This document shows positions 5,018 through 63,217 of a stretch of DNA of 64,000 nt, piece after piece (within the stretch, counting starts at the first letter, position 1; every line of letters begins with the position of its first letter). Made by a program: the position numbers and the translations under genes. The notes beneath the pieces were generated by a model. That model was not told the origin of the DNA. It made no database searches and saw only the letters and a program-made list of their open reading frames with translations. The stretch is from an uncultured delta proteobacterium (lineage in GTDB: Bacteria; Myxococcota_A; Polyangia; Polyangiales; Polyangiaceae), in contig CAVOKF010000001.1 of the NCBI GenBank assembly GCA_963696385.1, forward strand, positions 160,001 through 224,000, given 5' to 3'.

Positions 5018-5032
5018 AGGTACGCGTCTTGC
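5018..5032 (+). promoter_or_regulatory. Putative sigma54 -24/-12 promoter
   Basis: AGGTACGCGTCTTGC (GG-N10-GC with TTGC) upstream of 5131. Confidence 0.55.
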
Positions 5033-5130
5033 AGTTTGCGTGTCGAGCCGGCTTGCGCCAGAGGTGAGCTCTGGGCAGTGGACCCGGCCGACACGGCAAC
5101 GAAGCACACACCCAAAGAACGGACGCCCCG

Positions 5131-5646
5131 ATGAGTGACAAGAATGCGGCAGTCGCAATCTACGAGTCCCACGCGCTGGCTGAAGCCGCAGTGAAGGAGC
5201 TTCAGCGATCCGGTTTCAACATGAAGAGCATCTCCATCATCGGAAAGGACTACCACACCGAGGAGAACGTCGTCGGCTATTACAATACCGGCGATCGGAT
5301 GAAGTATTGGGGCAAAATGGGGGCCTTCTGGGGCGGATTCTGGGGGCTCCTCTTCGGAAGCGGTTTCTTTTTCATTCCTGGGATCGGCCCCATCCTGGTC
5401 GCGGGCCCGATCGTGACCTGGATCGTCGCCGGGCTGGAGGGCGCTGCGGTCGTCGGCGGCATGGGCGCGCTGGGGGGAGCTCTCTTCAGCATGGGGATTC
5501 CCAAGGACAGCGTCGTCAAATATGAGACGGCCCTCAAGTCCGACAAATTTCTCGTCTTCGTGCACGGCACTGCCGAGAACGCGGCGAAGGCGAAACAGAT
5601 TCTCGACAAGGCGAGCGCCACGGAGACGACCGTGCATCTTGCCTGA
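5131..5646 (+). CDS. General stress protein (17M/YflT-like) with Gly-rich membrane hairpin
   Basis: AEAAVKELQRSGF, ISIIGKD, GAFWGGFWGLL, IPGIGPILVAGP, MGIPKD motifs. Confidence 0.8.
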   Translation: MSDKNAAVAIYESHALAEAAVKELQRSGFNMKSISIIGKDYHTEENVVGYYNTGDRMKYWGKMGAFWGGFWGLLFGSGFFFIPGIGPILVAGPIVTWIVAGLEGAAVVGGMGALGGALFSMGIPKDSVVKYETALKSDKFLVFVHGTAENAAKAKQILDKASATETTVHLA

Positions 5647-5901
5647 GCGAAGCCGTTGGTCGACGTTCGGCGTGCCCCAAGCAGGACACGCCCCTTGCAG
5701 GAGACGCCTTGACGACTGCACTCCAACGAGGCCGCCGCGGCAATCAGGCTCTCGAAGCGGCCGCATAACGGCGAAACACGAGTTCTGGCGAAGCGGGAGA
5801 GGCCGGCCCACAGCTCGCGTGGCCTCTCGGGGTTAGCGTATCCAGCAGGCTCATCCGGCTTTTCAGCCGGTGTGGCCCCTCTCGACGAATTCCGAGGCGT
5901 C

Positions 5902-6441
5902 ATGAACCACTGCATTCCCGTCGTCGTCGTCGCGCTCGTGTCCAGCGTTTTGGGCGGTTGCGCCACGCAACAGCCACAAAGCCCCGCGGCGGGCTTGACC
6001 GAGCCGATTCACCCGCCCGTTCCGCCGAACTTGGGGACGGGGCCTGGGACGGCGGAGATCGAAGACATCGGCGGGCCGTACAACATCTATGTCTCGGAGA
6101 CGATCCGCGTCTGCTCCGGGCCCGATCCCTTCTTCGCCTTCGATGTCTCCAAGCCGATGGGGGGCGACCAGCCGACCATGAGGAATCTGATCGCGTGCAT
6201 GGTCTCCGGACCTCTGCAGGGCAGGACCATCAAGCTTATCGGCCACACGGACCCGCGGGGGACCGGCGCCTACAACGAGCAACTCGGGCTCCAGCGCGCC
6301 GAAAAAGTCAAGAAGTTCCTCGTCGCGAGCGGCACCGACCCGGCGCGCATCCTGATCGCGTCGATGGGTGCGGAAGACGCAGCGACTGGACCGAGTTCGT
6401 GGCCCGCAGACAGGCGCGTTCAAATCGAGCTCGTCCCCTGA
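5902..6441 (+). CDS. OmpA/Pal-like peptidoglycan-binding lipoprotein
   Basis: Lipobox VLGGC; GHTDPRG..YNEQLGLQRA..V and DRRV OmpA_C motifs. Confidence 0.88.
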   Translation: MNHCIPVVVVALVSSVLGGCATQQPQSPAAGLTEPIHPPVPPNLGTGPGTAEIEDIGGPYNIYVSETIRVCSGPDPFFAFDVSKPMGGDQPTMRNLIACMVSGPLQGRTIKLIGHTDPRGTGAYNEQLGLQRAEKVKKFLVASGTDPARILIASMGAEDAATGPSSWPADRRVQIELVP

Positions 6442-6673
6442 CGTGGACTTCACGGTTCTCGTCTCGCCGCGGCCGCAGCTCGTGGTCGCGCCAGAACGGC
6501 GAAATCGCGACCGACTCCACCGGATGCGTCATCGGCCCATTCCGGCCTCCTATCGAACCGAGCCGTTGCGCGGCCAAATCCTCGCATGGCTGACGGTCGG
6601 CGGCTCCCGCTCTTCCGCCGCGTGCTCGTCCCCTCGAAAAGTTGCGGATCGCGTCGCGACGAGCCGCGTCGAC

Positions 6674-8872
6674 TCAGCTCGCCCCGATGTCGCCTCGTGC
6701 GTTCGGGTGGGTCAGAAGGTCGACGTAGTCCGCCAAGATCCGCTCCCCTTCGGACAAGACGATGTCGTCTGCCGCGGATCGGTCGTTCGGAAGCGGGTCC
6801 AGGTGGCTCGTCGCCGGGGACGACACCGGATCTGGGTCATTCGTCCGCGCGACGGGCGGTGGAAGGCCCGGCTCGGAGGCGTTTTCGAGGGTGATCGCGT
6901 ATGTGGTGGGCCGCGTCTCCCGAAGGCCTCCGTCCGCGCGCTCATCGTGACGCGCCTTGTCCAAGGCGAGCTCGTGGCGCCGGTCCGCTTCGTTCAGTGA
7001 AACGGATTTCGTGGCCAGCCGTTGCCTGAGGCGGGCGATGTCGTCCGCCAGGTAGCGGAAATCCTTGTCCGCCGCGACCCGTCGGGCGGACTCGTCGCGC
7101 AGGCGGGCGACATAGGGCTCCACTCGGTTCAGACGTTCGTACGAGGCGGACGGTACGGCGTCCCACGGCAGCGGGTTCTTCAGGGCCGACTCACTCACCT
7201 CGCTGATGTCGCTCGTCGACGGCAGCACGATGTCGGAGGAGACGCCGCGCAGCTGCGTCGAGGCGCCGCTCGGCCGGTAGAACTTGCTGATCGTGACTTT
7301 GAGGGCACCGGGGTCGTAGGAGTGTGCGAGGCCTGCCTGATCCATGATGCGTGCGAGCGGCAGGATGGTCTGCACCGTGCCCTTGCCGAAGGTCGAGGAA
7401 TCGCCCACAACGAGCGCCCGCCCGTAGTCCTGCAGAGCCCCCGCCAGGATCTCCGTGGCAGACGCGCTGAATCGGCTGGTCAAAAGGACCAGCGGCCCGT
7501 CGTAGGCCACGCCGGGATCGGTGTCGGCACCCACCTCGATCTCGCCGTTCGGGTTGCGCGTCTGAACGACCGGCCCCTGGCGAATGAAGAGCCCCGTGAG
7601 CGTGATCGCTTCCTCGAGCGATCCGCCGCCGTTGGTCCGGAGATCCAACACGATCCCCTCCACGTGCTCCGCCTTCAACTTGCCGAGCAGCCGTGCGACA
7701 TCCGCGGTCGCGCTGCGGCTCCCGGCTCCCGCGCCGTCGCCCCTGTCGGCATAGAACGACGGGAGGTCGATGACACCGAGTCGACGCGTCGCGTCGCCCT
7801 TGCCCGTGGGCAGGTCCACGATGCGGGCCTTGGCTTCCTGATCTTCGAGCTTAACCTCGTCGCGCGCGATCGACGCCGTCTTGAGAGGGAGTGCGCCGTC
7901 CGCGCCGTCCGCAGGCAGGATCTGCAGCGTCACAGTCGAACCCTTCGGACCGCGGATCAATTCAACGGTTCGGGAAAGTGGCATGTTCGTGACGTCGACG
8001 GGCTGCTGGCCGGCTTGCGCCACCGCGACGATGCGGTCGCCAGGCTTCAGAAGACCGCTTCGCGCCGCGGGGCCGCCCGGGACCAGGCTGCGAATCGTGC
8101 AGTAGCCTTCCGCGTTCTCGAGCGTGGCGCCAATGCCGAACAGCGACAATTTCATGCCGATGGCGAAACTCTCCATCTGTTCGTGCCCGAGATAGTCCGA
8201 ATGCGGGTCGTAGACATGAGCGAGTGCGTCCAGGTAGACCTCGAGCCACTCGTCGGGCTTGACAGCCTTCAGGGTCTGCAGCTGCTGCGCGTATCGGTGC
8301 GTCAGCGTGCTCGCGATCGTCTCCGGTCTCCGGTCGCCCAGCTTTTCTTGCAAGTACTCCGCCCGGAGCTGCTCGAGCCAGAGTTTTCGGGCCGCGGTCA
8401 GGTCGGCCGGCCGCGGCGCGTGCCCGCGATCCAACGAGTCGACGTCGTGTCCCGTGAAGTCGAATGTCGTGGTCCGCAGGGTGTCGGCCACATAAGAAGC
8501 CCGCTGATCCATCCGTGTTAGAACCCGCGCAAAGATGGCCTCGGCCGCCCGGGTGTCGCCTGCCGCTCGGGTGGCCTGCGGCAGCGTCGCGCGGTTCGCG
8601 GCGAATTCGTCGACGTCCGTTTGCAGGAAGAGCGAACGCGTTCCATCCAGGGCATCGAGGTAGCGATCGAGCAAAGCGCCGGCCAGATCGCTGTCGAACG
8701 GGTGATGCGCGAATTGGGAGTGTTCGAGCAGACTGGTCGTCAGCCGGGTGATATTGGCCTCCGTCGTGCGCGTGTCTGGCTCGGCGGCCGAACGACGCCC
8801 GAGTCCGGTCGTGGCAAAGACCACAACGAGGGCAAGAGCGACCAGAGGGGAGGCAAACTTTCGAAATTTCAT
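6674..8872 (-). CDS. prc: Carboxy-terminal processing (tail-specific) protease, S41A
   Basis: DPHSDY, PDZ domain, DLRTNGGGSL, SASATEILAGALQDYGRA, TFGKGTVQ, STQLRGV; start chosen at MKFRKF signal peptide. Confidence 0.9.
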   Translation of the reverse strand: MKFRKFASPLVALALVVVFATTGLGRRSAAEPDTRTTEANITRLTTSLLEHSQFAHHPFDSDLAGALLDRYLDALDGTRSLFLQTDVDEFAANRATLPQATRAAGDTRAAEAIFARVLTRMDQRASYVADTLRTTTFDFTGHDVDSLDRGHAPRPADLTAARKLWLEQLRAEYLQEKLGDRRPETIASTLTHRYAQQLQTLKAVKPDEWLEVYLDALAHVYDPHSDYLGHEQMESFAIGMKLSLFGIGATLENAEGYCTIRSLVPGGPAARSGLLKPGDRIVAVAQAGQQPVDVTNMPLSRTVELIRGPKGSTVTLQILPADGADGALPLKTASIARDEVKLEDQEAKARIVDLPTGKGDATRRLGVIDLPSFYADRGDGAGAGSRSATADVARLLGKLKAEHVEGIVLDLRTNGGGSLEEAITLTGLFIRQGPVVQTRNPNGEIEVGADTDPGVAYDGPLVLLTSRFSASATEILAGALQDYGRALVVGDSSTFGKGTVQTILPLARIMDQAGLAHSYDPGALKVTISKFYRPSGASTQLRGVSSDIVLPSTSDISEVSESALKNPLPWDAVPSASYERLNRVEPYVARLRDESARRVAADKDFRYLADDIARLRQRLATKSVSLNEADRRHELALDKARHDERADGGLRETRPTTYAITLENASEPGLPPPVARTNDPDPVSSPATSHLDPLPNDRSAADDIVLSEGERILADYVDLLTHPNARGDIGAS

Positions 8873-9080
8873 AGCGACTCCAAGGGCTCCACAGATGAAT
8901 GCCGCAGTAGAAATACGGAACGCGCCTCGGGAGGGAGGCTCGACCGTCACACAACGGGTTCCATCCTGGGTCTGGCCGATGACCCGGGCCTTGCGAGGAG
9001 ATGACAAGCGTGAAGGGATGCGGACGGCGCTTTCGTTACATCCCGTCAGTCGCTCCGGTGGCGGGGGGCGTGCTAAGTCT

Positions 9081-9293
9081 GGGCGGCGTCGAGCCATCGA
9101 GTTGCAAACCAAAGAATTCACCTTGCTCGAATGCTTGATGCGCCATGTTGGGCGCGCCGTCTCCAACCACTTCGATCCCCAGACCCACGTCGTGGACGAG
9201 CTCGTGAGCCGTCTGAGCGGCGAGATCGGTCGCGATTTTTCGCCGAGGCTCATCGACACGTTGCGCGGCGGTTATGTCCTCCGGGTCGATTAG
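9081..9293 (+). pseudogene. OmpR-type response regulator remnant (winged-helix part only)
   Basis: IELQTKEFTLLECLMRH..FDPQTHVVDELVSRL..IDTLRGGYVL; no receiver domain and an apparent internal deletion. Confidence 0.75.
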
Positions 9294-10689
9294 TCCGCGC
9301 CGGCCGCTGCAGGCCGCCGCGGCCACGCGCGCGACGGGGCCTCGTACGTGGCGATCGTTGGGGGCGCGGCTCGCACTTTGGTACGTGCTCGTCACCCTCG
9401 GCTCGTTTCTCGCCGCCGCGGCCGTCTTTGCCCTGCGCGTGCAGTCCTCGGTGCAACAGCAAGGTCAGCGCTCGGCCGAAAGCGCGCTGCAACGATACCG
9501 CCTCGCGCTTGAGAACGGGGGCGTCGCCGCACTCCAGGCGATGTTCGATTGCTCGTCGGGCCCCGGGCCCAGCATCGCGGTCCGGTTGACCGACGAGCGG
9601 GATGTCGAGTTGTTCGGCATTTCATCGGACGAGGCGTCCCGTCGCGTCGCCGCGGGTTCCTCCGAGCGCGGCGCGCAGGCAGCCGTGCCGATCGAGTGGC
9701 ACATTGCACGAGCCGAAGTGTCGCAGAGGCGACGCCTGTCGCTCGCGCTGCGCGATGAACCGACCCAACTGCTCTGGCGTGAGTTGCGAAAAACCTCCTG
9801 GCTCATTTTCGGTCTCGGACTCGGGCTGTCGATTGTCGGTGCGTTGATCATCACGCGACGAACTCTGCGACCGGTGACCGATTTGATGCGAGCGACCCAG
9901 CAAATCGTGGAGTCCGGTGACCTTCAGCTGCGCGTGCAGACGCGCGCGTCCACGGACGAATTGGCTCAGCTCACGCAGCTGTTCAACCGCATGTTGGCGC
10001 GCATCGAAGCGCTCGTGAAGGCCATGCGCGAATCGCTCGATTATGTCGCTCATGACCTGCGAACGCCGCTTGCGCGCCTCCGCGCGGGCGCGGAGCTCGC
10101 TCTCCGCCGTCCGGCTGAGGACACCCGCGCGCGAGACGCCCTCGCAGAGGTCATCGATGAATCGGACCGGATCCTCCGAATGCTCACCACGTTGACGGAC
10201 ATCGTCGAAGCCGAAGCGGGCGCAATGCGGCTTGACAAGCGCATCGAAGACTTCGGCACGATTGTCCGCGAAGCCGTGGTGCTCTACGATTTCGTCTCGA
10301 AGGACAAGGGCGTAACGGTCGTGACACACATCGCCGGGGACGCCAAAGTCTTCGCGGACCGCCGCCGCCTTTCGCAAGTCTGCGCCAATCTCATCGACAA
10401 CGCCATCAAGTACACCGCGCCAGGAGGGCGCGTGGAGGTCGCCATCGCTCCGGACGGGGATTGGACGATCCTGCGAGTGTCCGATACGGGAATCGGCATC
10501 GCGCCCGAAGATTGAGATCGTGTCTGGGACCGACTCTTCCGGGCCGACCGAAGCCGTGGGGAGCCCGGGCTCGGACTGGGCCTTTCGCTGGTGAAGGCAG
10601 TCGTCGAAGCGCACGGGGGGGAGGTGCGTCTCGAAAGTACGCTCGGCGCGGGATCGATGTTCGAGGTTCGCTTGCGACGCGCGCCCTGA
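9274..10689 (+). pseudogene. HAMP sensor histidine kinase interrupted by in-frame TGA at 10513-10515
   Basis: HAMP, H-box AHDLRTPL, N-box NLIDNAIKY, DTGIGI; after the TGA the same frame continues DRVWDRLFRADRSRGEPGLGLGLSLVKAVVEAHGG to the stop at 10689. Confidence 0.85.
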
Positions 10690-10822
10690 CACGGACTCGG
10701 ACGTGGTCGGGTCCGCTTCTCGTTTGGGCAAGAGGCAAAAGGTCGCGGCCAAGGGGGCGGCGACGCCGGTGATGGCCTCGGCGGTCGATCGCGAAGGAAC
10801 CATCCTTGCATGAGGCCCAGCC

Positions 10823-12243
10823 ATGTCAGTTGCACATTTTCGATGGGGGGTGGGGGTCACGGCGGCTCTCGAGACGCTGTTCGCGACGGCCTTGGCCAGC
10901 GCCGCCGCGCCTCCCGCGTCTCTGGACAAGCCCGCTGACATCCCCCAGCTCCACCTCGACGTGCGGCGGTCGACCCTGCCCAACGGGCTGCGGATCGTGC
11001 TCTCGGTCGACCACACCTCGCCGACGGTGGCGGTCGACGTCATGTACGACGTCGGCGCGCGCAACGAGAAGCGAGGGCACTCCGGGTTCGCGCATCTGTT
11101 CGAGCACATGATGTTCCAGGGATCGGCGAACGTGGCCAAGGGCGAGCAGATGAAGCTCATCACCGCCCATGGCGGCACCCTCAACGCCAACACGAGCTCC
11201 GACCGCACGAACTACTTCGACGTGGTCCCGGAGAGCGAGCTGCCGCTCGCCCTGTGGCTCGAGGCCGACCGGATGAAGTCGCTCGATGTATCGCTGGCCA
11301 ACTTCGACAACCAGCGTCTCGTCGTCGAGGAGGAGTACCGCATGAGGATTCTCAATGCGGCGTACGCACCCGCCGCGCTCCGCCTCGAAGAGCTCGTCTT
11401 TCAGGGCTACTGGCCGTACGCGCACCCGGTCATCGGGTCGATGACGGACCTCGACACGTCGCAGCTCGACTGGGTCAAGGCGTTCCACGCCGAGTACTAC
11501 GCGCCGAACGACGCCGTGCTCGTCGTCTCGGGCGATTTCGATCCCGCCGTGGCCCTCGACCGCGCCAGCGCCTATTTCGGCGATGCGAAGACGGCGACAC
11601 CGCCCGAATACGATCCCGGCGTGATGCCCGATCAGACGCTGCCGCGCGAGGACATCGTGCGGGACGTGCACGCACGTTTTCCCGCGGTTCTTTATGGCTG
11701 GCCCATCCCCCCCGCGCATACGCCCGATCACTACGCGCTCGAGGTCGCCGCCGACGTTCTCGCCGGGGGGAGAGCTCGCGCCTCTATAGGACGCTCGTCC
11801 ACGACAGGGCGATCGCCATCGACATCGACGCCGAGACCGAGGGGCACCGTGGCCCCGACGCTTTCGAGATGAGCTCGAAGGTCTCGAGCAAAGGAACGGT
11901 GGGCGAGGTCGAGAAGGTGATCGCCGATGCCATCGCGTCGCTCTCCAAGCGGCCGCCGACGGACGACGAGATGGTCAAGGTGCGGAGCGGGCTGGCCTCG
12001 CACTTTCTTTTCGGCCTCGAGTCGAACTACGCGCGTGCCGCAGAGCTTGCGACCTTCGAGACCTACTGGGGCGATGCGGCGCTCCTGAACACCGAGCTCG
12101 ATCGATACCTCGCCGTGACCAAGGAGGACGTCTCGCGCGTGGTGGCGAAGTACCTTGTTCCGAGCCGTCGCTCGCGGGTCGAGGTGGAGCCGGGGTTTGC
12201 GAATCCAGCGGCGGCCGACGCAAGCGAGGGGAGGGCGCCATGA
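10823..12243 (+). pseudogene. M16 family zinc peptidase (catalytic subunit), frameshifted at G-run 11765-11770
   Basis: HLFEHMMF HxxEH motif; the C-terminus (GESSRLY...) is in another frame, and adding one G restores LAGGESSRLY. May be a sequencing error. Confidence 0.8.
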
Positions 12244-13814
12244 TGCGGGCGAACGTTCGAAACCATGCTTTCGAGGCCTCGTTCGCCTCCTGGGCTGCGT
12301 CCGCGTTGGCGCTGGGCGCTTGCGGTTGCGGGTCGGCCCGTCCGTCTCCAACCCTGTCCGCCCCGCCCACAGGCGCCTATGTCGCGCCTGCGGCGCCGAG
12401 CAAGGAGCTGCCTCCGGCGCCTCTGGAGACCAGGCCGTCTCCCTTTCCTGGCGTGGTGAAGAGCGCCCTTCAGAATGGCCTTCGCGTGTCCGTCGTCGAA
12501 TCGCATGCCCTGCCCGTCATCGAGCTCCGCGTCGTCGTTCACGCGGGAAGGGGGTTCGCTGCGCCCGGGGTGAGCGAAGTCACCGCCAGGATGCTCAAGG
12601 AGGGCGGGACTCGAGCGCACACGGCGACCGAGGTCGTGAAGCGCATCGAGATGCTCGGGTCGAGCCTCGATGTCGCCGTGGGACCGGATGCGACATGGCT
12701 GTCGATGGGTGTCGTTCGAGGACAGCTGGGCGAGGCCCTGGAGATCCTGGGCGAGGTGCTCACGACTCCACGCTTCGATGCCGCCGAGCTCGCGAGAGTG
12801 AAGGCTCGGACAACGGATCAAGCGCGTGACGATGCGCGCTCGAACGGCACGTGGAGCGCGAACCGCATTCTTTTCCGAGCGCTCTTTCCGCCCGCAAGCC
12901 CGTACGCGATCTACGGCCTCGTTCCAGCGGAAATCGCGAAGGTGGACGGCGCCGCTGTTCGCGATTTCTACGAGCGCTTCTACGCTCCGTCGAAGGTCGA
13001 GGTCATCGTCGCCGGCGATGTGGAGGCGCGGGAAGTGGACAAGGCGATCGACCAGGCGCTGGGGCACTGGAGAGCGGCGACGGTCCGCCCATCCGCGCCG
13101 CCCGATTTCCCGCAGCCCACACCCCCCGACGTGACGCGCGTGTTTGTCGCCCATCGACCGAAGAGCGTGCAGAGCGACATCGTCGTCTCGCAGCTTCTAC
13201 CCGATCGGCACTCCCCCGGCTGGCCCACCGATCGCGTCGCGCTCCAGGTGTTCGGCGGAGGGCTCACGGGGCGCCTGTTCCGGGATGTGCGCGAGAAGCG
13301 ATCGCTCGCCTACTCGGCCAGCGCGCACCCGCTCGAGCTCGCGCACGACGCACAGCCGCTCCTCGCCTACGCGGGCACGCAGGCACCGAAGACGGCGGAA
13401 GCGGTGCAGGCAGTCCTGGACAACCTTGCCGGCATGCGCACTGCGCCGCCGACCCCCGACGAAGTGATGTCGGCCCGGCGCTACCTCAGCGATATCTTCG
13501 CCGTGCGCATGGAAACCCTCGGTGCCATTGCGGACATGGTCGCCCAGCTGCGCGAGCTCGATCTCCCGGACGATTACTGGGACACGTATCGCGCGGGGCT
13601 CCGCGCGGTCACGACAGCGGACACGGACGCAGAGGCGGCGAGGGTGTTCACACCCGATCATGCGCTCATCATCGTGGCCGGCGACGCGGACGTGGTGGCC
13701 GATCCATTGACTCGCTTCGGCGAAGTCACCGTCATCGACCCCGAGAACGACTTCCGCGTGATTCGCCGCCTCCCGAGGAGTGCGGCTGCGGCGAACGATC
13801 GCCAAAATCGATGA
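12240..13814 (+). CDS. M16 family peptidase-like partner subunit (no HxxEH), probable lipoprotein
   Basis: LQNGLRV, RLFRDVREKRSLAYSA motif; ATGA-coupled to the preceding gene. Confidence 0.85.
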   Translation: MMRANVRNHAFEASFASWAASALALGACGCGSARPSPTLSAPPTGAYVAPAAPSKELPPAPLETRPSPFPGVVKSALQNGLRVSVVESHALPVIELRVVVHAGRGFAAPGVSEVTARMLKEGGTRAHTATEVVKRIEMLGSSLDVAVGPDATWLSMGVVRGQLGEALEILGEVLTTPRFDAAELARVKARTTDQARDDARSNGTWSANRILFRALFPPASPYAIYGLVPAEIAKVDGAAVRDFYERFYAPSKVEVIVAGDVEAREVDKAIDQALGHWRAATVRPSAPPDFPQPTPPDVTRVFVAHRPKSVQSDIVVSQLLPDRHSPGWPTDRVALQVFGGGLTGRLFRDVREKRSLAYSASAHPLELAHDAQPLLAYAGTQAPKTAEAVQAVLDNLAGMRTAPPTPDEVMSARRYLSDIFAVRMETLGAIADMVAQLRELDLPDDYWDTYRAGLRAVTTADTDAEAARVFTPDHALIIVAGDADVVADPLTRFGEVTVIDPENDFRVIRRLPRSAAAANDRQNR

Positions 13815-13859
13815 GCGGCGTTCGCTGCACGCGCGGCTGGCGATTCCGGCGAAACTGGG

Positions 13860-14141
13860 TCAGCCGATGAAGACGCCCTTGACGTTGATGGCGAAAATCC
13901 GATCGAACTCAACCTCGCTGACGTCCTCGATTGCCTTCGTGAACGCCCACGCCGCGTTGTTCACGACGATGTCGATGCGACCGAACTTGTCGAAGGCGGC
14001 CCCGAACATGGCGCGGATCTCCTCCGGGATGCCGACGTCGGCTTTCACCGCAAACGCACGCCCGCCACGCCGCTCGATCTCGACGGCGACATCTTCGGCC
14101 TGCGTAGATGTGTCGAGATAGTTGACGGCGATGGACACATC
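13860..14141 (-). pseudogene. SDR oxidoreductase internal fragment
   Basis: IAVNY..AVKADV..FGRIDIVVNNA..FAINVKG; lacks N-terminal TGxxxGIG and YxxxK. Confidence 0.75.
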
Positions 14142-16264: not shown

Positions 16265-16778
16265 GTGGCTCCGGGGGGTGGTGAGGGCGATCGAACCGGG
16301 CGCGTCAGAGGCCGGTCACCTTGCCAATTGTGAAACGATCGGTACCTTATGGAGCGCAGCCGTACGAGGAGTTCAAGACGGCCATCGATCGCGAACTGGC
16401 CAGGAGCGCCGCGACGAGATGACCCGGGCTGCGAAACGGGAGCTTTCCGTCGGTCCTTCGGTACGCGACATGCTTCGAAACTCGTCCGGCGCTCCCAAAG
16501 GATGTCGAGCACCTTCGGGGTTGACTCGCCCCGCACCCGGCATGGCCGATGCTAGGTGGGCCCTTGAAATGGAGGTTCCAGTGATGAGCATGATCCATTC
16601 TGAGCACCAGGTCGTCACGATCACCGCTGCCGTGGTCGCCTTGACTCTTGTCGCCTGCGGGCACGAGACGCAGACACAAGCGGCGGCAGCACCGTCCAAT
16701 GAAGTGGACCCCAAATTTCGGACCACCCCTTAAGGTAGTAAAGACGGGCCTGCTCCCCGATGACGAGGAGCAGGATCA

Positions 16779-21428: not shown

Positions 21429-21443
21429 GCAAGACCCATGCCC
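21429..21443 (-). promoter_or_regulatory. Putative sigma54 promoter
   Basis: GGGCATGGGTCTTGC on the minus strand. Confidence 0.55.
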
Positions 21444-26527: not shown

Positions 26528-26542
26528 GCAAAGGATATGCCG
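26528..26542 (-). promoter_or_regulatory. Putative sigma54 promoter for glgP
   Basis: CGGCATATCCTTTGC on the minus strand. Confidence 0.6.
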
Positions 26543-26845
26543 TTTTGCATTTGCACAGGCCGACAGTCGGATGACAACGCGCTGCGGGCGGCCAGAGGTC
26601 GGACCGTTCGCGTCGCGCGAAGTCGGGTTCGCAAGTTGCCCGCGCCTCGTCTTTCAAGCCTCGCATCGCCGCGAGGGTATGCGCACGGCGCGTCTTCTCT
26701 CGCAGCGTGGCTGTATCGGGAAGGCCCCTCAAGAGGGCTGCCGCAAATCCGTGGGTGTGGCGCCAAGCCACATGGCGCGTCGCGCCACACGGGGTCGGCC
26801 GGCCGTGTGCATCCGGGCCTGATTATTGCGTCGGCGTACGGGGCG

Positions 26846-28299: not shown

Positions 28300-28553
28300 G
28301 GCGATCACCTCACCTGCCGGGCTAGCAAGTCCCGGTCCCGGGCAGCCGCACCCCAGCCGTTGGCGAAATGCGAGCCAAGGGATCGAAAAGCGAACCGTCC
28401 CGCGTGCCCGACCACCAGCGGGGCGAGCCACGAGCGCGCTCGCCGCGGGCGGATCTCCATCGGATCGCAGACCGCGAGGAGGGTCCAACGCCATGGCGTC
28501 TTCAGTGGTGCAATCAGCCTGAGCCGAAGGACGCGCCCTCCATTCGGCCCAGA

Positions 28554-28736: not shown

Positions 28737-28997
28737 GACCGAAGGAGAACGCAGCTTTCGAGCCGGCGTTGGCTCTCCTCGATTGCCGCCCTCTGAGAAC
28801 GGCTATCCAACGGCCTCCCCTCGGGCGCGAAAGCGCGCCATGGACCGCGCGTCCGAATCGCAACGTGCCAAAAGCTATGGCAAAGTGCGGAGGATCGGGC
28901 CCACGCGCGCGGTGAGCTTGGGATCAAGAGTTCCAGGCTCCCGAGTGGTCCGCCGGCGTCGTCGGCATGCTTCGTGCGTGCGACCGCCACGAACTTC

Positions 28998-30328: not shown

Positions 30329-30343
30329 CGGCACGCGTATTGC
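30329..30343 (+). promoter_or_regulatory. Putative sigma54 promoter
   Basis: CGGCACGCGTATTGC, near-consensus. Confidence 0.7.
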
Positions 30344-30792: not shown

Positions 30793-30807
30793 CGGCATGG
30801 CTCTTGC
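30793..30807 (+). promoter_or_regulatory. Putative sigma54 promoter
   Basis: CGGCATGGCTCTTGC upstream of the slipin gene. Confidence 0.65.
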
Positions 30808-37404: not shown

Positions 37405-37419
37405 CGGCAGGACATTTGC
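37405..37419 (+). promoter_or_regulatory. Putative sigma54 promoter
   Basis: CGGCAGGACATTTGC; near-identical copy at 43098-43112. Confidence 0.6.
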
Positions 37420-38208: not shown

Positions 38209-38223
38209 TGGCACGGACCGTGC
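38209..38223 (+). promoter_or_regulatory. Putative sigma54 promoter for tal-pgi
   Basis: TGGCACGGACCGTGC. Confidence 0.6.
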
Positions 38224-43060: not shown

Positions 43061-43123
43061 AAAACTGCGACAGCCGTGCCAGCCTACGCAGTGACCACGG
43101 CAGGCCATTTGCACTGCACGACC

Positions 43124-44084: not shown

Positions 44085-44099
44085 TGGCTCCGAAATTGC
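44085..44099 (+). promoter_or_regulatory. Putative sigma54 promoter for csbD(-gnd-zwf)
   Basis: TGGCTCCGAAATTGC. Confidence 0.55.
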
Positions 44100-47857: not shown

Positions 47858-47872
47858 GCAAGTGACGTGCCG
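47858..47872 (-). promoter_or_regulatory. Putative sigma54 promoter
   Basis: CGGCACGTCACTTGC on the minus strand, near-consensus. Confidence 0.7.
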
Positions 47873-49529: not shown

Positions 49530-49685
49530 GGTGGAGTCTCCACACCTGCGAAAGCCGGGCCACATCGCCTTCGGCAATCGCGAGGTGAGCGATCGAGACC
49601 GGTCGCGACAGTTGGATCGCCCTTACGGGAGCGGCGGTTGGGTCTTACTCTCTCGGCGGTGCGCTCGCCGGTGCGACAAAAATGG

Positions 49686-50383: not shown

Positions 50384-50398
50384 TGGCACGCCGTGTGC
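50384..50398 (+). promoter_or_regulatory. Putative sigma54 promoter
   Basis: TGGCACGCCGTGTGC. Confidence 0.6.
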
Positions 50399-55151: not shown

Positions 55152-56194
55152 TGCCAGCTGCCTTCGATCGTGATTTCGACGGGCATCCCCGACCGCAGCC
55201 GCATGTCCGCGTTCGGGATGCGAACTTCCACCGCATAGACCAAGCGCTCGCGGTCCTCCCGGGTCTGAACGTTGCGCGGCGTGAATTCGGCGCGTGGCGA
55301 AACGTAGAAGATCGTGCCTTCGAAGATCTGCCCCGGATAGGCATCCGCGACGACCTGAACCTTCCGACCCGGCGCCGCGGCGGCGAGCTCCGCGTTGGGA
55401 AGGTAAAAGCGCGTGCGCCCCTCGGTCACGTCGGTCAGCGCGATGACGTTGGTGCCCGGTTGCACGGCTTCGCCGGGACGGAAATTGAGCGAGACGACCA
55501 TCGCATCTCGCGGCGCGAGCAACTTGCACTCGCCCACCGTGACCTGCGCGCCGAGGACCGCCGCTCTCGCGGCTTCGACACTGTCTTCGGCAGCGATGGC
55601 CTTCGATTTCGCCTCCGTGCCCGAGGCCCAGAGTGCGCCGGCCTGGTCTTGGATCATCGACTCGATGGCGTGCTGTTCGGCAATCTGATTTTCCACCGCG
55701 AGCTCCTTCGAGCGGGCTTCGTCGAGCGCCGACGCGGAAAGTGTCCCACGCTCCACGAGCTGCTCGGTTCGCAGAAGTTCGAGCCGCGAAAGCTCCTCCT
55801 GGGCCTTGAGGACATCGATTTGCGACCGGGCCGCAGTGACGTTTTGAGAGGCGCCCGTCGCGTTCTGCGACGCCGATTTCACGTTCGATTGCGCGGCTTT
55901 GTGGCTCGACTGCTCGGCCGCGAGCTGGGCTTTCAACTGACTGAGCGTCGCTTCCGCCTCGGTGCAATCGAGCTCCACGAGGACGTCGCCCTGCTTGACC
56001 ATGTCGCCCTCGCGCACGTCGAGCTTCACGATTCGGGCGGCGATGCGGCTCGTGGCGTTGACGTCGACGCCCTCGATGACGCCGCTGCCGCCGGCGGGCC
56101 CGTGCTCGGCGGCGCGAAGATGCCGCACCAAGACGAGCAGAGCGACGAGCAGGCCACCGGCCAGGATGCTGATGAGGATCAGAGCCCGCTTCAT
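55148..56194 (-). CDS. HlyD family membrane-fusion protein (YbhG-like)
   Basis: SGVIEG, VREGDMVKQGDVL, AEFTPRNVQT, GMP. Confidence 0.92.
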   Translation of the reverse strand: MKRALILISILAGGLLVALLVLVRHLRAAEHGPAGGSGVIEGVDVNATSRIAARIVKLDVREGDMVKQGDVLVELDCTEAEATLSQLKAQLAAEQSSHKAAQSNVKSASQNATGASQNVTAARSQIDVLKAQEELSRLELLRTEQLVERGTLSASALDEARSKELAVENQIAEQHAIESMIQDQAGALWASGTEAKSKAIAAEDSVEAARAAVLGAQVTVGECKLLAPRDAMVVSLNFRPGEAVQPGTNVIALTDVTEGRTRFYLPNAELAAAAPGRKVQVVADAYPGQIFEGTIFYVSPRAEFTPRNVQTREDRERLVYAVEVRIPNADMRLRSGMPVEITIEGSWQ

Positions 56195-56291
56195 GACGGT
56201 TGCTTCGAGATATCCCGGCCTGTGGCGTGATCGACGCGTGCCATCGCCTTGGTCGGCTCCTTCGAGGGTCTGCTTCTTGCGTGCGCTTCTT

Positions 56292-56306
56292 GCACGCCGG
56301 GTGCCA
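56292..56306 (-). promoter_or_regulatory. Putative sigma54 promoter for ABC exporter operon
   Basis: TGGCACCCGGCGTGC on the minus strand. Confidence 0.55.
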
Positions 56307-56565
56307 GCACACCGCACGAAGGCGCTCGCGCGATGCCAGAAACCGCTGCGGCTTGAGACGCGGGTGCTGGACAACGTCTCCCGACGGCGCAGGCTCGTCA
56401 CGCATGATACGGAGGTATTTTCTCGTATAGAAGCGCAAGCCGTATAGAAGCGTCGCGCCGAAGAACGCCGCCGAACGTGGAACGGAGGTGTGGCTCCCAA
56501 GGCGAAGTGCGAAGACGGATGCGCTTTAGCAGGCATTTTGCCAAATGCGCCGAATCTTCGCGGAA

Positions 56566-58105: not shown

Positions 58106-58120
58106 GGGCACGGCTTATGC
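58106..58120 (+). promoter_or_regulatory. Putative sigma54 promoter
   Basis: GGGCACGGCTTATGC. Confidence 0.5.
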
Positions 58121-58166: not shown

Positions 58167-58268
58167 ATGAACCGGTTCCGAGTGGCGCCAGGGCACAAGC
58201 TACGACTGAACGACGTCGATCCGGGGTTCACGGATCACCACGGTGGAAGTGACTTGGAAGCAGAATGA
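58167..58268 (+). pseudogene. 33-aa ORF resembling the PPK2 N-terminus, coupled to MFS start
   Basis: MNRFRVAPGHKLRLNDVDPGFTDHH vs IERFRVVPGSTVKLTEIDTRFTAHH of ppk2. Confidence 0.55.
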
Positions 58269-59563
58269 AGGACACGGGCAGCGACGCCCTTTCGAGCACG
58301 GAGCGACGACTCATCCTTCTCCTCGGCGTTCCGAGTGCCGGGCTGTCGGCGTGCCTTACGGTCCTCTCCACGTACGTTCCGGTGCTGGCGCGCCGGTTTA
58401 CCGCGTCGACCGCAGTCATTGGCGTGCTCGTCGGGGGCGAGGGGCTCATCGCGGTGCTCATCCCCGTCTGGGTGGGCCGATTCTCGGATCACTCCGACAC
58501 TCGGTGGGGTCGCCGCGTCCCGTTCCTGTTGGCGACCGCGCCCGTCGCGGCCCTGGCGCTCGCCTTGGTGCCCTTCGCGCCGTCGCTGTCCGTCATGGCC
58601 GTGGAGGTGTTCTTCTTTTATCTCGCGTACTTCACGTACTTCGCGCCGTACCAAGCTCTCTACCCCGACCTCGTCTCGGAGGCTGCGAGTGGCCGAGCGC
58701 AGGGAATCCAGGGCGTCTTCAGCGAGGTCGGTCTCGGCTTGGCGCTCGTCGGTGGAGGGTTTTTGCTCTCGCTGTGGCGGCCGCTGCCTTACCTAGGCGC
58801 GGCGGCCACGCTGCTTCTGTCGACGGTCGTCCTCGTGCGGGGGCTCAGCATTGGCGGGCAAGCTCAGCGGGGTCCCGCTTCCAAGCGCGATCGACGCTCG
58901 CCTGCTGCGGAGGTCTGGGCGCTTCTGCGCGGCCATCGCGAGATCCGAACCTTCGTGTTCGGCAACGCACTTCTGACGCTCGGCCTCGGGGGTCTCAAAA
59001 GTTTCGTCGTGCTTTGGCTGACCGAGGGGCTCGGCAAGAGCATGAATTTCACCGCGGGCGCGATGAGCGTGGTCGCGCTCGGAACGGTCCTCGGCGCGTT
59101 GGTGTCCGGCAAACTCGCGGACCGAACCGGTACGGGCCCCGTCCTTTGCATCGCTCTCGCCGTGTTCGGCATCGGGATCGCCCTCGGTACCTGGTCGAGG
59201 TCCACGGTCCTGCTCGGCATCGCGTTTCCGATCATCGCGCTCTCTGCGGGGGCGGCGGTGGCCTTGCCCTACGCGTTGCTCATGCAACTGATGCAGTCGC
59301 GTCACCATGGCACGATGGCCGGTCTCTACGACGTGAGTAGCGGCGTCGGGACGCTCCTCGGGCCGACGATCACCGGTGTGGCCATCGATCTCTTGCGGCC
59401 GCAATTCGCGTCTACGCACGGATATGCGGCGATGTGGCCCGTGCTCAGCGTGTCGATCCTCGCCAGCGCGGTGATGCTGTGGCATGCCGCCGCGCTCGGG
59501 CGTTCTCCAGGCCCATCCGTCTTTGCGTCGCAGCGGCCGTCGCAGCGGCCTACCGCTCGGTAG
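58265..59563 (+). CDS. MFS transporter (GPH/sugar-like)
   Basis: GRFSDHSDTRWGRRVPF, GKLADRTG, ~12 TM. Confidence 0.9.
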   Translation: MKDTGSDALSSTERRLILLLGVPSAGLSACLTVLSTYVPVLARRFTASTAVIGVLVGGEGLIAVLIPVWVGRFSDHSDTRWGRRVPFLLATAPVAALALALVPFAPSLSVMAVEVFFFYLAYFTYFAPYQALYPDLVSEAASGRAQGIQGVFSEVGLGLALVGGGFLLSLWRPLPYLGAAATLLLSTVVLVRGLSIGGQAQRGPASKRDRRSPAAEVWALLRGHREIRTFVFGNALLTLGLGGLKSFVVLWLTEGLGKSMNFTAGAMSVVALGTVLGALVSGKLADRTGTGPVLCIALAVFGIGIALGTWSRSTVLLGIAFPIIALSAGAAVALPYALLMQLMQSRHHGTMAGLYDVSSGVGTLLGPTITGVAIDLLRPQFASTHGYAAMWPVLSVSILASAVMLWHAAALGRSPGPSVFASQRPSQRPTAR

Positions 59564-59774: not shown

Positions 59775-59789
59775 AGGTATGCCAATTGC
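59775..59789 (+). promoter_or_regulatory. Putative sigma54 promoter
   Basis: AGGTATGCCAATTGC. Confidence 0.55.
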
Positions 59790-59802: not shown

Positions 59803-59973
59803 ATGCGACAAACGCTAACCTGGACGGCCATGGTGTTCGCCATCTCCGCCTCCGCCTGCTGGCACGAAGACCGGCCCGGCGCGGCGTACTACGATCACCA
59901 CCACGACGGCGACCACCACGATCAAGGCGACCATCACGACGACCATCACGACGACCATCACGACCAGCACTGA
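59803..59973 (+). CDS. Small His/Asp-rich lipoprotein (56 aa)
   Basis: ASAC lipobox-like site then DHHHDGDHHDQGDHHDDHHDDHHDQH. Confidence 0.7.
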   Translation: MRQTLTWTAMVFAISASACWHEDRPGAAYYDHHHDGDHHDQGDHHDDHHDDHHDQH

Positions 59974-60081: not shown

Positions 60082-60096
60082 CGGCCCGCTCCTTGC
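60082..60096 (+). promoter_or_regulatory. Putative sigma54 promoter
   Basis: CGGCCCGCTCCTTGC. Confidence 0.5.
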
Positions 60097-60128: not shown

Positions 60129-60422
60129 ATGACCCTCTTGGAATTCATCGTGTACCTCGTCATCGCTGGTGTCTGCGGAGCCATTGCGCGGGCCGTGGCA
60201 GGGGGTAGCGGGGGCGGGTTCGTCATCTCCCTGCTCGTCGGCTTCCTCGGCGCCTTCGTCGGTACCTGGCTGGGGCGTCAGTTCCATCTGCCGGCGTTCG
60301 TCGTCGTGAGCATCGGCGGGCATCCCTTCCCGATCGTATGGTCCATCGTCGGCGGCATTGTGCTCGTAGCCCTCGCGCAGATGTTCGTGCGACCGCGCTA
60401 CATCCATCGCTACGGGGAGTGA
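60129..60422 (+). CDS. GlsB/YeaQ/YmgE stress-response membrane protein
   Basis: LVIAGVCGAIA, LLVGFLGAFVGTWL, SIVGGIVL. Confidence 0.88.
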   Translation: MTLLEFIVYLVIAGVCGAIARAVAGGSGGGFVISLLVGFLGAFVGTWLGRQFHLPAFVVVSIGGHPFPIVWSIVGGIVLVALAQMFVRPRYIHRYGE

Positions 60423-60479: not shown

Positions 60480-61349
60480 CTAGCCGACTCGACCCGTGAC
60501 GCACTTCTCGATGCGCGCCAAGCGAGTCAGAAGGCCGGCTTCGAATTCTTCGACCTTGCAATGCAGCGCGGCGACCTCGAGCTCTGCCTTGAGGTTCACG
60601 CGGTATTCGATGTCGTTGCGAGCCCGGTCGCGCGCAACCTGGCGGTTTTGCGACAGAAGCACGAAGACCGAGAGAATGATGGCCTCCAAAGAGACCGCCA
60701 TCGTGAGCAGCCCGAATGGATACGGGTCCCAACCCCCAAAAGGGGTATGCGACAAGGGGCCGACGTTGTCGGCAATCCACAAGAGGAAGACGAGGCAGTG
60801 AATGAGAAGAAAGGGAATGCTGCCGGAGAACTCGCTAATCGTGTCGGCTACCTTCATCACGCGCGTCCGACGGTCCTGCTCCTCTTCATTGAAATTTCGC
60901 GACGCGGGGTGGCGCAGCAGCCGCGCGGACTCGCGCAGCCGCTTTCCGGTCGCCGCCAAGAGGTCGAGCGCGGCGGGGGGATGCACCCTCAGGAATTCGT
61001 CGAGATCGCCCCGGTCGACGACGAGTGCCTCGACGTCGTCGGTCGCCATCGCCGACGCTGTGCGGGGACCGCCGTCGAGGAGCGACAGCTCACCAAAGAA
61101 ATCACCCGCCCGCACCGTTTCGATGACAATGCGGTCGCCAAAATCGTTCGTGAGCGACATCTCGACCTCGCCCGATCGCAGGACGAAGAGGGCATCGCCC
61201 GGCTCGCCGATGCGGAAGATGAGCGTCCCTCGCGGGAATGTCACGACGTCCAGACGCTCGGCAAGCGCCGAGCGCTCGTTGTCGTCAAGCAAGGCGAAGA
61301 GCGGGATGTCGGCGAGAAGATCGACGGAGGTGACCATGGGTCCGCCCAT
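60480..61349 (-). CDS. cNMP-binding domain + DUF1003 membrane protein
   Basis: GDFFGELSLLDGGPRTASA; DPYPFGLL..SLEAI..LLSQNRQ..D..VNLKAELE. Confidence 0.9.
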   Translation of the reverse strand: MGGPMVTSVDLLADIPLFALLDDNERSALAERLDVVTFPRGTLIFRIGEPGDALFVLRSGEVEMSLTNDFGDRIVIETVRAGDFFGELSLLDGGPRTASAMATDDVEALVVDRGDLDEFLRVHPPAALDLLAATGKRLRESARLLRHPASRNFNEEEQDRRTRVMKVADTISEFSGSIPFLLIHCLVFLLWIADNVGPLSHTPFGGWDPYPFGLLTMAVSLEAIILSVFVLLSQNRQVARDRARNDIEYRVNLKAELEVAALHCKVEEFEAGLLTRLARIEKCVTGRVG

Positions 61350-61578
61350 GTTGAGTCCAAACTCGCGACGACGGCCAGTCCTTCTATGGATCCGTCAGTC
61401 ACCCGGCCGTTTGTTTCAGGCCCTCTTCGCGATTGCGCATGATCTGCGCCGATCGACGACGCTTCCGCGACGGCGGTCGGCCGCTGTCTCCGAAGCAAGA
61501 GGCAGTCCACCCATATAGGTAAAACGGCACGCGCCTAGCCGCACTCCGACCCCGGCGACGACGACCCCCCCGCGTCCT

Positions 61579-61593
61579 TGGCATGAGTTCTGC
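61579..61593 (+). promoter_or_regulatory. Putative sigma54 promoter
   Basis: TGGCATGAGTTCTGC. Confidence 0.55.
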
Positions 61594-61660
61594 GAGTGCC
61601 GTCTCGGCGCCGCGATCGCGTTGGGTTCCGACGCGCGCGGCCTAGAGTGAGTTTGTCACC

Positions 61661-62986
61661 ATGGCGCCGATGTTCGTAATGGACGACTGGGTTTCTTCGG
61701 ACGTGCAGAGTGGCGAGCGCGCTCTGACAGACCGAGTCATTCCGGGTCCCGGTTCGATCGTCGGCGGCAGCTACCGCATCATCCGCCCTCTCGGAGCGGG
61801 CTCGATGGGCGTGGTCGTTCTCGCGCACGACGAGACGCTCGACCGCCCCGTCGCCATCAAGTTCACCCGCCCGAATTTCTTCGGCCCGAGCCTCCAAAAG
61901 TGTTTTCTCGACGAAGCTCGCGCGATGGCGCGGTTCAACCACCCGAATGTTCTGCAGGTCTACGGCCTCGGCGAACACGACGGAGCACCGTACATCGTCA
62001 TGGAATTCGTCGAAGGTCGTACGCTGGCGCAGTGGCTCGAGGAGCGTGACTCGCCTCCGGATTTGGAGATCGTATTTCGCATTCTTGACGACGTCTGTTT
62101 GGGCATGGCCGCGATTCATTTGCGCGACACCGTTCACCACGACCTCAAGCCCAGCAATATTCTTCTCGACGACCAGCTCCGAGCGCGAGTGGCGGACCTC
62201 GGGCTTGCGGCTCTCTGCCGACGAGACCGGCCGAGTCCGTCCGAACTCGTCGGCACCCCAGCCTACATGGCGCCGGAGATCGCATTTTCGAAAGGCTGCG
62301 ATCCTGCGTTGCGCTCGCGTGCCGACGTCTACTCGCTCGCTTGCCTCTCGTACGAGCTTTTTACGGGGCGCCCGCCTTTCGACGGAGCGGGGACCATGGG
62401 AATTCTGCTTCGGCACGCCATGGAGCCCGTCGTTCCACCGAGCGCATTTCGCGCCGGTCTCCCCGAGGCGCTGGATCGGGTGCTTCTCGACGCTCTGGCC
62501 AAGGACCCCCGGGAGCGGACTGCATCGGTCGAGACGTTTCGTTGCGACCTTCTCGCGTCGCATCGGGCAAGCCTCGACCCCAGGCGGATTCTGATTGCGG
62601 ACGACAATGACGCCTTTCGAGAAGGCCTGAAAGCCATCTTGGCTCAGGAGTTTCCGAATGCCGATTTCGAATGCGTGCCGGACGGCATCGCCGCCCTGGA
62701 AGCCTTCGAGCGGACTGTTCCCTCGATGGCCATTTTGGATCTTCAGATGCCCGGAATCGACGGCATGGCTCTCACCCAGCGTTTCCGCCAGCGCATTGGT
62801 TCTGCGGCGATGCCGATCGTCGTGTTGACCGCATCGGGAGGCCCCGACGAGTGGCGGCAGCTCGCGAAGATGGGTGCAGATGGCTTTTTGCTCAAGCCCG
62901 TGATTGCGGTCGACGTCGTCGCATTGGTGCGGCGCACTCTGCATGGGCGAACCAACGGCGCACCGCGCATGGTGGGATCCGAGTAG
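61661..62986 (+). CDS. Ser/Thr protein kinase with C-terminal receiver domain
   Basis: LGAGSMG, VAIK, HHDLKPSN, DLG, GTPAYMAPE; ILIADD..ILDLQMP..LTAS..KP. Confidence 0.9.
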   Translation: MAPMFVMDDWVSSDVQSGERALTDRVIPGPGSIVGGSYRIIRPLGAGSMGVVVLAHDETLDRPVAIKFTRPNFFGPSLQKCFLDEARAMARFNHPNVLQVYGLGEHDGAPYIVMEFVEGRTLAQWLEERDSPPDLEIVFRILDDVCLGMAAIHLRDTVHHDLKPSNILLDDQLRARVADLGLAALCRRDRPSPSELVGTPAYMAPEIAFSKGCDPALRSRADVYSLACLSYELFTGRPPFDGAGTMGILLRHAMEPVVPPSAFRAGLPEALDRVLLDALAKDPRERTASVETFRCDLLASHRASLDPRRILIADDNDAFREGLKAILAQEFPNADFECVPDGIAALEAFERTVPSMAILDLQMPGIDGMALTQRFRQRIGSAAMPIVVLTASGGPDEWRQLAKMGADGFLLKPVIAVDVVALVRRTLHGRTNGAPRMVGSE

Positions 62987-63202
62987 GGGGTGAGGGCACC
63001 CGAGGGACAGGCGCGGGCGGTCCTTTCGCTGCTCTTCGGGCGTCGGTCGCACGCCTAGCCCAATTCTAGCGGGCGCGGTCCGACCTCATGCGTTTGGCCA
63101 CTCCGGAAAGTAACCGAGCAGAGCCTCGTCGACGGTGGCTCCGAGGTTGTCCAAGTTGGCAATCCACACGCGCTCGCTGGTCATGAGCCAAAGCGGGAGT
63201 GG

Positions 63203-63217
63203 CGGCACGCCGCCTGC
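63203..63217 (+). promoter_or_regulatory. Putative sigma54 promoter
   Basis: CGGCACGCCGCCTGC. Confidence 0.55.

Follow-up and report, generated by a model that had tools for sequence, protein, structure and literature searches.

General stress responses are textbook cases of regulation by sigma70-family factors, namely SigB in Bacillus, RpoS in E. coli and EcfG/PhyR in the Alphaproteobacteria, which are controlled by anti-sigma factors or partner switching. The families found in these regulons include CsbD, YflT, GlsB/YeaQ, OsmY/BON, Usp, PRC-barrel and small membrane proteins or lipoproteins. Sigma54 is silent without ATP-driven activation. It is used for stress adaptation in the phage-shock (PspF) system, which is a single operon system, and in the Rrp2-RpoN-RpoS system of Borrelia it acts on a single gene, rpoS, whose product in turn runs the regulon. 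To our knowledge, the organisation of the general stress response in the Myxococcota and in many uncultured soil lineages is poorly known. We analysed a 64-kilobase (kb) stretch of DNA from an uncultured delta proteobacterium (contig CAVOKF010000001.1, positions 160,001 to 224,000; hereafter the window, 62-68% G+C), in which a sequence-only reading had listed 24 sites resembling the -24/-12 element of sigma54 (RpoN) and proposed that they drive a general stress regulon. The gene families in the window are those of the SigB, RpoS and EcfG regulons, but the promoters are of the sigma54 type, and each would need an ATPase activator. Unlike in the PspF and Borrelia systems, sigma54-type elements lie directly at each stress gene.

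The closest described systems are those of Nla28 and PexR. In Myxococcus xanthus, Nla28 and sigma54 control a starvation regulon with about 70 candidate promoters and 140 genes (PMC9765219). Its promoters are on at starvation or stationary phase and its targets are regulatory, metabolic, envelope and defence genes (PMC9765219). The window resembles this regulon in probably belonging to the same phylum and in carrying many sigma54-type promoters. However, the tandem CT(C/G)CG(C/G)AG half-sites of Nla28 targets are not enriched in the window, Nla28 promoters are mostly intragenic (9/12; PMC9765219) whereas 16 of the 19 core sites in the window are intergenic and close to gene starts, and the gene set here is of the CsbD/GlsB/BON/YflT/PRC type. 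In M. xanthus and other Myxococcota, PexR and sigma54 mount a peroxide response by acting on ahpC and katB through dyad-symmetry enhancers (PMC12754779). The window would resemble that system as a Myxococcota stress response passing through sigma54 and an enhancer-binding protein instead of the textbook regulator, but the PexR response comprises two genes (PMC12754779), and the window has about 20 units, lacks ahpC and katB and shows no dyad common to the units. Usp genes are enriched among predicted sigma54 targets in the Planctomycetia (PMC12316311). Our literature search, which was limited in coverage, retrieved no paper linking sigma54 with the CsbD/GlsB/BON/YflT/PRC gene set.

The analysis upheld about 21 of the 24 listed sites and added three that had not been listed, all on the minus strand (Table 1). 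With slightly more confidence than doubt, we interpret about 20 of these elements as genuine sigma54-type promoters, unusually dense, that put an island of stress, dormancy and storage genes under sigma54, with its units activated together. The sites would fire as promoters, with transcription beginning about 12 nucleotides (nt) past the GC. From the established properties of sigma54, the island would need enhancer-binding activators that use ATP and are encoded in other parts of the genome. One or a few such activators would switch the units on together in a stress or starvation programme.

All 24 listed sites (17 plus, 7 minus) and the three added ones carry GG-N10-GC. This bare motif is common, with 1211 sites in the window, and we therefore tested richer patterns. 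GGCAYG-N5-TGC matched 12 times against 2.25 expected, a count reached in 0 of 100 shuffles. For TGGCACG-N4-TTGCW, 20 matches with at most two mismatches were found against 9.3 expected; with at most three mismatches the count was barely above expectation (118 against 96.6), and loose matching was therefore uninformative. With GG and GC fixed and at least 10 of the 12 positions of the same pattern matching, there were 16 sites against 4.9 expected (maximum of 13 in 200 simulations). In an unbiased scan, every pair of trinucleotides separated by 0-20 nt was compared between intergenic and coding DNA. Among the approximately 75,000 dyads tested, GCA-N7-TGC ranked first: it was counted 36 times over both strands (18 sites) where 4.4 (about 2 sites) were expected (p = 5e-21).

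The division into intergenic and coding DNA relies on a gene map built with a home-made codon-usage score and checked against Pfam and NCBIfam, which yielded about 62 genes and about 84% coding DNA and left 10.3 kb intergenic (16% of the window). GGCA-N7-TGC occurs 19 times in the window, 16 of them within this intergenic DNA (Fisher p = 1e-10), and a Markov simulation of intergenic DNA alone gave 1.9 +/- 1.5 (maximum of 8 in 500). A second class, GG-N8-TTGC[AT] without GGCA, occurs 17 times, seven of them between genes (Fisher p = 0.012), where simulation gave 2.0 +/- 1.5 (maximum of 7), so about five of these seven exceed chance. The sequence-only reading had made its proposal depend on enrichment over background, and the 16 intergenic GGCA-N7-TGC sites against 1.9 simulated provide it. 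The GGCA class holds 15 of the listed sites and the TTGC[AT] class six; the sites listed at 37405 and 43098 are paralogous copies and hence not independent. Local density is unusually high, at about one site per 3 kb of the window. Transposon units aside, roughly every second transcription unit has such an element.

The GCA-N7-TGC core reads identically on both strands, and a palindromic operator therefore had to be excluded. On this alternative, the motif is no promoter at all: it would be the operator of a dimeric protein that binds GCA-N7-TGC or, considering the 1211 bare GG-N10-GC sites, a product of chance in GC-rich DNA. Against this, among the 18 core sites in intergenic DNA, 16 had the G before GCA on one side only and two lacked it altogether, with no site carrying it on both sides, and the base following GC was C at 0/23 sites; the motif is therefore directional and not a palindromic operator. 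All 23 sites of the two enriched classes point at the start of a gene on the same strand, in line with the gene-facing orientation that had been claimed. The wrong strand was possible for the 14 sites between tandem genes, and all 14 were correctly oriented (p = 6e-5). Four small open reading frames (ORFs) in the gene map were first spotted because they lay behind a site, but the strand result is independent of them because the next larger gene shares their orientation. Convergent intergenic DNA (1458 nt) contained no site of either class. Shine-Dalgarno sequences, wherever visible, were all downstream of the predicted transcription start, and the fixed short distance of the sites to these sequences and to gene starts fits a promoter. 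Together with the eightfold excess over simulation, these results already disfavour an operator or a chance motif, which we consider very improbable.

The motif also fits the sigma54 consensus at positions that the sequence-only reading had left unused. Published sigma54 promoters have the consensus TGGCACG-N4-TTGC(T/A) (PMC9765219), and the consensus derived from the window sites is YGGCAYG-N4-TTGC[A/G/T]. At positions outside those used for selection, the 15 independent GGCA sites carried Y at +4 in 13/15, G at +5 in 12/15 and T at +10 in 6/15. In two Band7 paralogues, the promoter cores (21429-21442, minus strand; 30794-30807, plus strand) are identical at 13 of 14 bases, spacer included, while the encoded N-termini share only 36% identity and the DNA on either side is unrelated. 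We consider the assignment of these putative elements to sigma54 well supported at the sequence level.

The stress families named by the sequence-only reading (YflT, BON, CsbD and GlsB) were recovered behind the sites by Pfam, as were PRC-barrel, DUF3309 and Usp. Matches above the curated cut-offs in the window were CsbD, YflT, Transgly_assoc, BON (five repeats), Usp (two genes), PRC, DUF3309 and Band7; the DUF3309 unit perhaps includes Usp. Other units behind sites encode LTXXQ, glycogen phosphorylase, Tal-PGI, 6PGD/G6PD, response regulators and Ser/Thr kinases. The island under sigma54 would thus comprise small stress proteins (YflT, CsbD, GlsB, DUF3309, BON x5, PRC-barrel, Band7, LTXXQ and OmpA-like lipoproteins) together with glycogen phosphorylase, a PPK2 remnant, oxidative pentose-phosphate genes, response regulators and Ser/Thr kinases. 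If these promoters are active together, the protective gene set known from the SigB, RpoS and EcfG regulons would have come under a sigma factor that works by a different mechanism. The tight off state of sigma54 would suit dormancy genes, and the window supplies about 20 natural promoter variants for testing such rewiring.

A number of observations weigh against a single sigma54-dependent island, beginning with the sites and genes themselves and extending to the activators, the related loci and the condition of the region. The sequence-only reading had cautioned that weak sites could be chance matches, and this may hold for those listed at 26796 and 61437, which score at most 8/12. About one third of the driven units, those for M16 peptidases, an ABC exporter, an MFS transporter, kinases and response regulators, are not stress genes in the classical sense. 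Conversely, several stress-type genes have no site, namely Usp at 4265, OmpA at 5872, DUF4142 at 49686 and PPK2 at 22291. Sites were likewise absent from a Bat-like operon (with Usp), a tail-specific protease, the truncated histidine kinase, short-chain dehydrogenases, MarC and all transposase genes. No rpoN or enhancer-binding protein gene was found in the window by Pfam or a six-frame signature search; this agrees with the earlier proposal of an activator encoded outside it, but makes the presence of sigma54 in the organism an assumption.

An enhancer motif shared by the upstream regions, which the sequence-only reading had suggested looking for, was not found by searches for dyads, palindromes or Nla28 half-sites or with a Gibbs sampler. 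In the regions from -220 to -3, the top dyad reached p = 3e-6 over approximately 75,000 tests. The Gibbs sampler gave motif information of 9.98 and 10.92 bits, and control runs on six random sets per motif width gave 10.2-10.6 and 11.0-12.4 bits. Nla28-type half-sites with at most one mismatch had a density of 5.8 per kb in the upstream regions and 4.8 per kb over the window as a whole, and a search for GAC-N-GTC palindromes upstream of the promoters found nothing common to the set. Motifs of the sigma70-family stress factors were not enriched either: the EcfG-type motif GGAAC-N16/17-CGTT occurred twice in the window against 2.6 expected, neither copy upstream of a stress gene, and the SigB-type motif GTTT-N13-17-GGGTA occurred 0 times against 0.3 expected. 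The EcfG-type motif was also absent within 300 nt upstream of Tal-PGI at all 78 loci with enough upstream sequence. With no shared enhancer found, no activator in the window and no enrichment of EcfG or SigB motifs, the common feature of these units is the promoter class only.

It may be, then, that the sigma54 promoters are genuine but form no single regulon, each unit answering to its own activator, as would be expected where a lineage has dozens of enhancer-binding proteins. The density would then stem from heavy sigma54 use throughout the lineage combined with accessory genes gathering in a plastic region. The failure of every search run to find a common upstream motif is consistent with this, as is the mixed content of the units, which includes an exporter, peptidases, a transporter and kinases. 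Myxococcota rank with the lineages richest in enhancer-binding proteins (PMC12316311), and the insertion sequence (IS) elements and duplications in the window mark the region as plastic. On the other side, the flanks of two related loci are far sparser in sites, with 5 sites of at least 10/12 in 39 kb (about one per 8 kb) against 16 in the 64-kb window, so not every region of the lineage is this dense. In other phyla, the gene families concerned are controlled together in the general stress response, and an activator that lacks a DNA-binding domain would have no enhancer motif to reveal it. We regard separate activators as possible but on balance doubtful.

In a more ambitious version of the sigma54 island, sigma54 and one master activator would form a general stress or dormancy switch in this Polyangia-like lineage, a functional counterpart of SigB, RpoS or EcfG, with a -24/-12 element right at each small stress gene and with several transcripts leaderless. 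The master activator would have to work without a fixed enhancer, either lacking a DNA-binding domain or binding very loosely. This version is speculative and we think it rather unlikely. One activator, a few or many are all possible. A general stress response wired through sigma54, as the sequence-only reading had proposed, is favoured by the promoter class and the stress families and disfavoured by the lack of a common enhancer among those searched for; a general stress regulon is plausible but unproven.

We compared the window with related loci through the Tal-PGI protein, whose closest homologues reach 77% identity and whose best homologues bearing a name are labelled Polyangia or Kofleriaceae. 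A single-protein search of genome contigs found no relative. A search with an 18-sequence Tal-PGI alignment retrieved 80 loci, of which only L014 (79%; labelled "Gemmatimonadaceae") and L015 (75%; labelled "Myxococcales") were close; the other 78 belonged to other phyla. Conservation at orthologues was mixed across these two loci. In L015, the best site (TGGCACGAATGTCGCT, 11/12) lies before a GlsB homologue and a TTGCT-class site lies before a divergent lipoprotein gene. In L014, CGGCACGATTCCTGCT lies before a response regulator and Ser/Thr kinase pair, with further sites before a small membrane protein and the CBS-protein region. In contrast, the Tal-PGI genes of both loci have no promoter of their own and lie inside operons behind tkt or gnd, and no GG-N10-GC of at least 8/12 was found upstream of the PRC-gnd-tal/pgi-glgP cluster of L015. 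The two relatives thus give weak, partial support for a lineage-level link of sigma54-type elements with such genes.

The region is also damaged, with IS elements, frameshifts and truncated genes, so some of the promoters may be relics. Four transposable elements are present, of IS3 type (16779-17911), of IS630 type (22471-23585), an IS66-family transposase preceded by a DruA-domain ORF (32108-34709) and an IS4-like DDE transposase (35518-37206). A 300-nt duplication with 100% identity (37495-37794 and 43270-43569) covers a receiver-only response-regulator gene; the promoter regions upstream of the two copies resemble each other without being identical, and the portion of an OmpA-like gene that has been lost differs between the copies. 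Mosaic fragments fill 42.9-44.0 kb. Tal-PGI (38250-41097) is frameshifted, with residues 1-635 in one frame and the last 267 in another (40294-41097); these last residues are 80% identical to residues 678-944 of P0001, and about 45 intervening residues are unaccounted for. It is either a pseudogene or an assembly error.

In the extreme case, the promoters would be largely relics in an island decaying through IS insertions, frameshifts and truncations, with many elements left without an intact gene. Remnants of Band7, PPK2, OmpA and a kinase (42923-43060) directly behind elements (Table 1), a frameshifted paralogue of the 86-amino acid (aa) ORF (43674-43935), the Tal-PGI frameshift and the truncated histidine kinase and short-chain dehydrogenase genes all fit such decay. 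However, most elements lie before intact ORFs with good codon usage, and the consensus is kept by the elements, those of diverged paralogues included. Some of the frameshifts and other damage may be assembly errors, as L014 shows many frameshifts; the truncations are real rearrangements. We therefore find wholesale decay of the promoters improbable and retain active sigma54-type promoters as the preferred interpretation.

Table 1. Candidate sigma54-type elements in the window and the genes behind them. "Listed" gives the coordinate in the sequence-only reading and is empty for the three added sites.
Element	Position	Strand	Listed	Class or score	Context and downstream genes
GGTACGCGTCTTGC	5019..5032	+	5018	TTGCA	98 nt before YflT-domain gene 5131-5646 (Pfam YflT)
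GGAACCATCCTTGC	10796..10809	+	10795	TTGCA	ATG 13 nt past GC; M16 peptidase pair 10823-13814
GGCATGGCCGATGC	16539..16552	+	16538	GGCA	Lipoprotein N-terminal fragment 16569/16584-16733, then IS3 element 16779-17911, then OmpA C-terminal fragment 18157-18573
GGCATGGGTCTTGC	21429..21442	-	21429	GGCA	Band7 N-terminal remnant, 62 aa, 21202-21390 (against Band7, E = 3e-7); downstream BON x5 gene 19499-21049, then 296-aa ORF
GGCATATCCTTTGC	26528..26541	-	26528	GGCA	About 250 nt before alpha-glucan phosphorylase gene 23762-26278
GGACCGGGACTTGC	28325..28338	-	28325	TTGCT	PRC-barrel gene 27484-28299/28308
GGCATGCTTCGTGC	28964..28977	+	28963	GGCA	LTXXQ-family gene 28998-29987 and 95-aa ORF
GGCACGCGTATTGC	30330..30343	+	30329	GGCA	86-aa ORF without known family, 30384-30644
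GGCATGGCTCTTGC	30794..30807	+	30793	GGCA	Band7/SPFH gene 30904-31764
GGCAGGACATTTGC	37406..37419	+	37405	GGCA	ATG 13 nt past GC; lipoprotein/OmpA remnant 37433-37534; second gene, receiver-only response regulator ending at 37908
GGCACGGACCGTGC	38210..38223	+	38209	GGCA	Then Shine-Dalgarno GAGGAGG and GTG start; Tal-PGI 38250-41097 (frameshifted), then TIM, then PRC-barrel gene (to 42866)
TGGCACGGCTGTCGCA	43066..43081	-		Closest consensus match in window (1 mismatch)	Faces only a 138-nt fragment, 42923-43060, with 81% identity to an internal stretch of the Ser/Thr kinase gene; seemingly a promoter whose kinase paralogue has been deleted
GGCAGGCCATTTGC	43099..43112	+	43098	GGCA	Paralogous copy of the 37406 element; OmpA C-terminal fragment 43142-43309; second gene, duplicate response regulator 43267-43683
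GGCTCCGAAATTGC	44086..44099	+	44085	TTGCA	82 nt before CsbD 44182-44358, then 6PGD 44397-45524, then G6PD 45524-46927
GGCACGTCACTTGC	47858..47871	-	47858	GGCA	In 48-nt gap after kinase gene; ATG 14 nt past GC; 234-aa response regulator 47139-47843
GGCCCGGCTTTCGC	49548..49561	-	49548	TCGC at -12; 10/12	Ser/Thr kinase 47892-49529
GGCACGCCGTGTGC	50385..50398	+	50384	GGCA	Secreted 153-157-aa ORF 50411/50423-50884
GGCACCCGGCGTGC	56292..56305	-	56292	GGCA	Then GGAG and ATG at 56245; operon 50964-56245 (HlyD, 2 ABC ATPase, 2 ABC-2 permease)
GGCAAAATGCCTGC	56529..56542	-		Atypical; possibly chance	Second site upstream of the HlyD/ABC operon
GGCACGGCTTATGC	58107..58120	+	58106	GGCA	Then AGGAGGAGG and 33-aa PPK2 N-terminal remnant 58167-58268; second gene, MFS transporter 58265-59563
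GGTATGCCAATTGC	59776..59789	+	59775	TTGCA	ATG 13 nt past GC; 56-aa His/Asp-rich lipoprotein 59803-59973
GGCCCGCTCCTTGC	60083..60096	+	60082	TTGCT	GlsB/YeaQ-type gene 60129-60422 (Pfam Transgly_assoc)
GGACTGCCTCTTGC	61495..61508	-		TTGCT	cNMP-binding/DUF1003 gene 60480-61349
GGCATGAGTTCTGC	61580..61593	+	61579	GGCA	Ser/Thr kinase-receiver fusion gene 61661-62986
GGCACGCCGCCTGC	63204..63217	+	63203	GGCA	DUF3309 63255-63404; Usp gene next, about 63620 to window end
GGCCGGCCGTGTGC	26797..26810	+	26796	Weak, 8/12; may be chance	124-aa membrane ORF
GGCGCAGATCATGC	61437..61450	-	61437	Weak, outside both enriched classes; may be chance	

For the cNMP-binding/DUF1003 gene, the added site at 61495-61508 is a better candidate promoter than the listed 61437 site. 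We considered whether the elements at 49548-49561 and 43066-43081, which are identical at 14 of 16 bases, are paralogous, and alignment of their flanks gave no support for this. The DUF4142 lipoprotein gene at 49686-50252 (+) has no sigma54-type element upstream.

Scans of the window for tRNAs and Rfam families gave no match, and NCBIfam added no stress-specific names beyond Pfam for its proteins. A plasmid collection searched with 9 kb of the window returned short zwf matches only. For the BON protein, the nearest Atlas cluster is mostly Myxococcota. With the names of the Tal-PGI homologues and the labels of the two related loci, this makes an origin in the Myxococcota likely, though not certain.

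The IS3 element apparently interrupts a lipoprotein/OmpA gene, and the IS630 element lies upstream of PPK2. The histidine kinase ORF (9274-10515) ends inside the ATPase domain (53/111 profile positions), and the short-chain dehydrogenase ORF (13860-14312) holds only about the first half of its domain.

Single promoters do have palindromes of their own. One example is an inverted repeat, TCGACGA-N10-TCGTCGA (38087-38110), which precedes the Tal-PGI promoter by about 100-123 nt, a typical enhancer position, and is absent from the other promoters. In L015, genes for PRC-barrel, gnd, tal-pgi and alpha-glucan phosphorylase are adjacent and run in one direction (7695-15411). Members of these four families also occur in the window, spread across 20 kb, and this points to a conserved functional module.

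At four elements, an ATG follows closely, 13 nt past the GC at 10796, 37406 and 59776 and 14 nt past it at 47871. These ATGs would coincide with the expected transcription start or lie no more than about 3 nt from it, and two of them are fixed by lipoprotein signal peptides. The four promoters could possibly give rise to leaderless sigma54 transcripts, of which our literature search, limited in coverage, found no description. The lipoprotein at 59803-59973, behind one of these ATGs, has a tail with a run of DHH-type repeats and no Pfam or NCBIfam match, and is possibly metal-binding.

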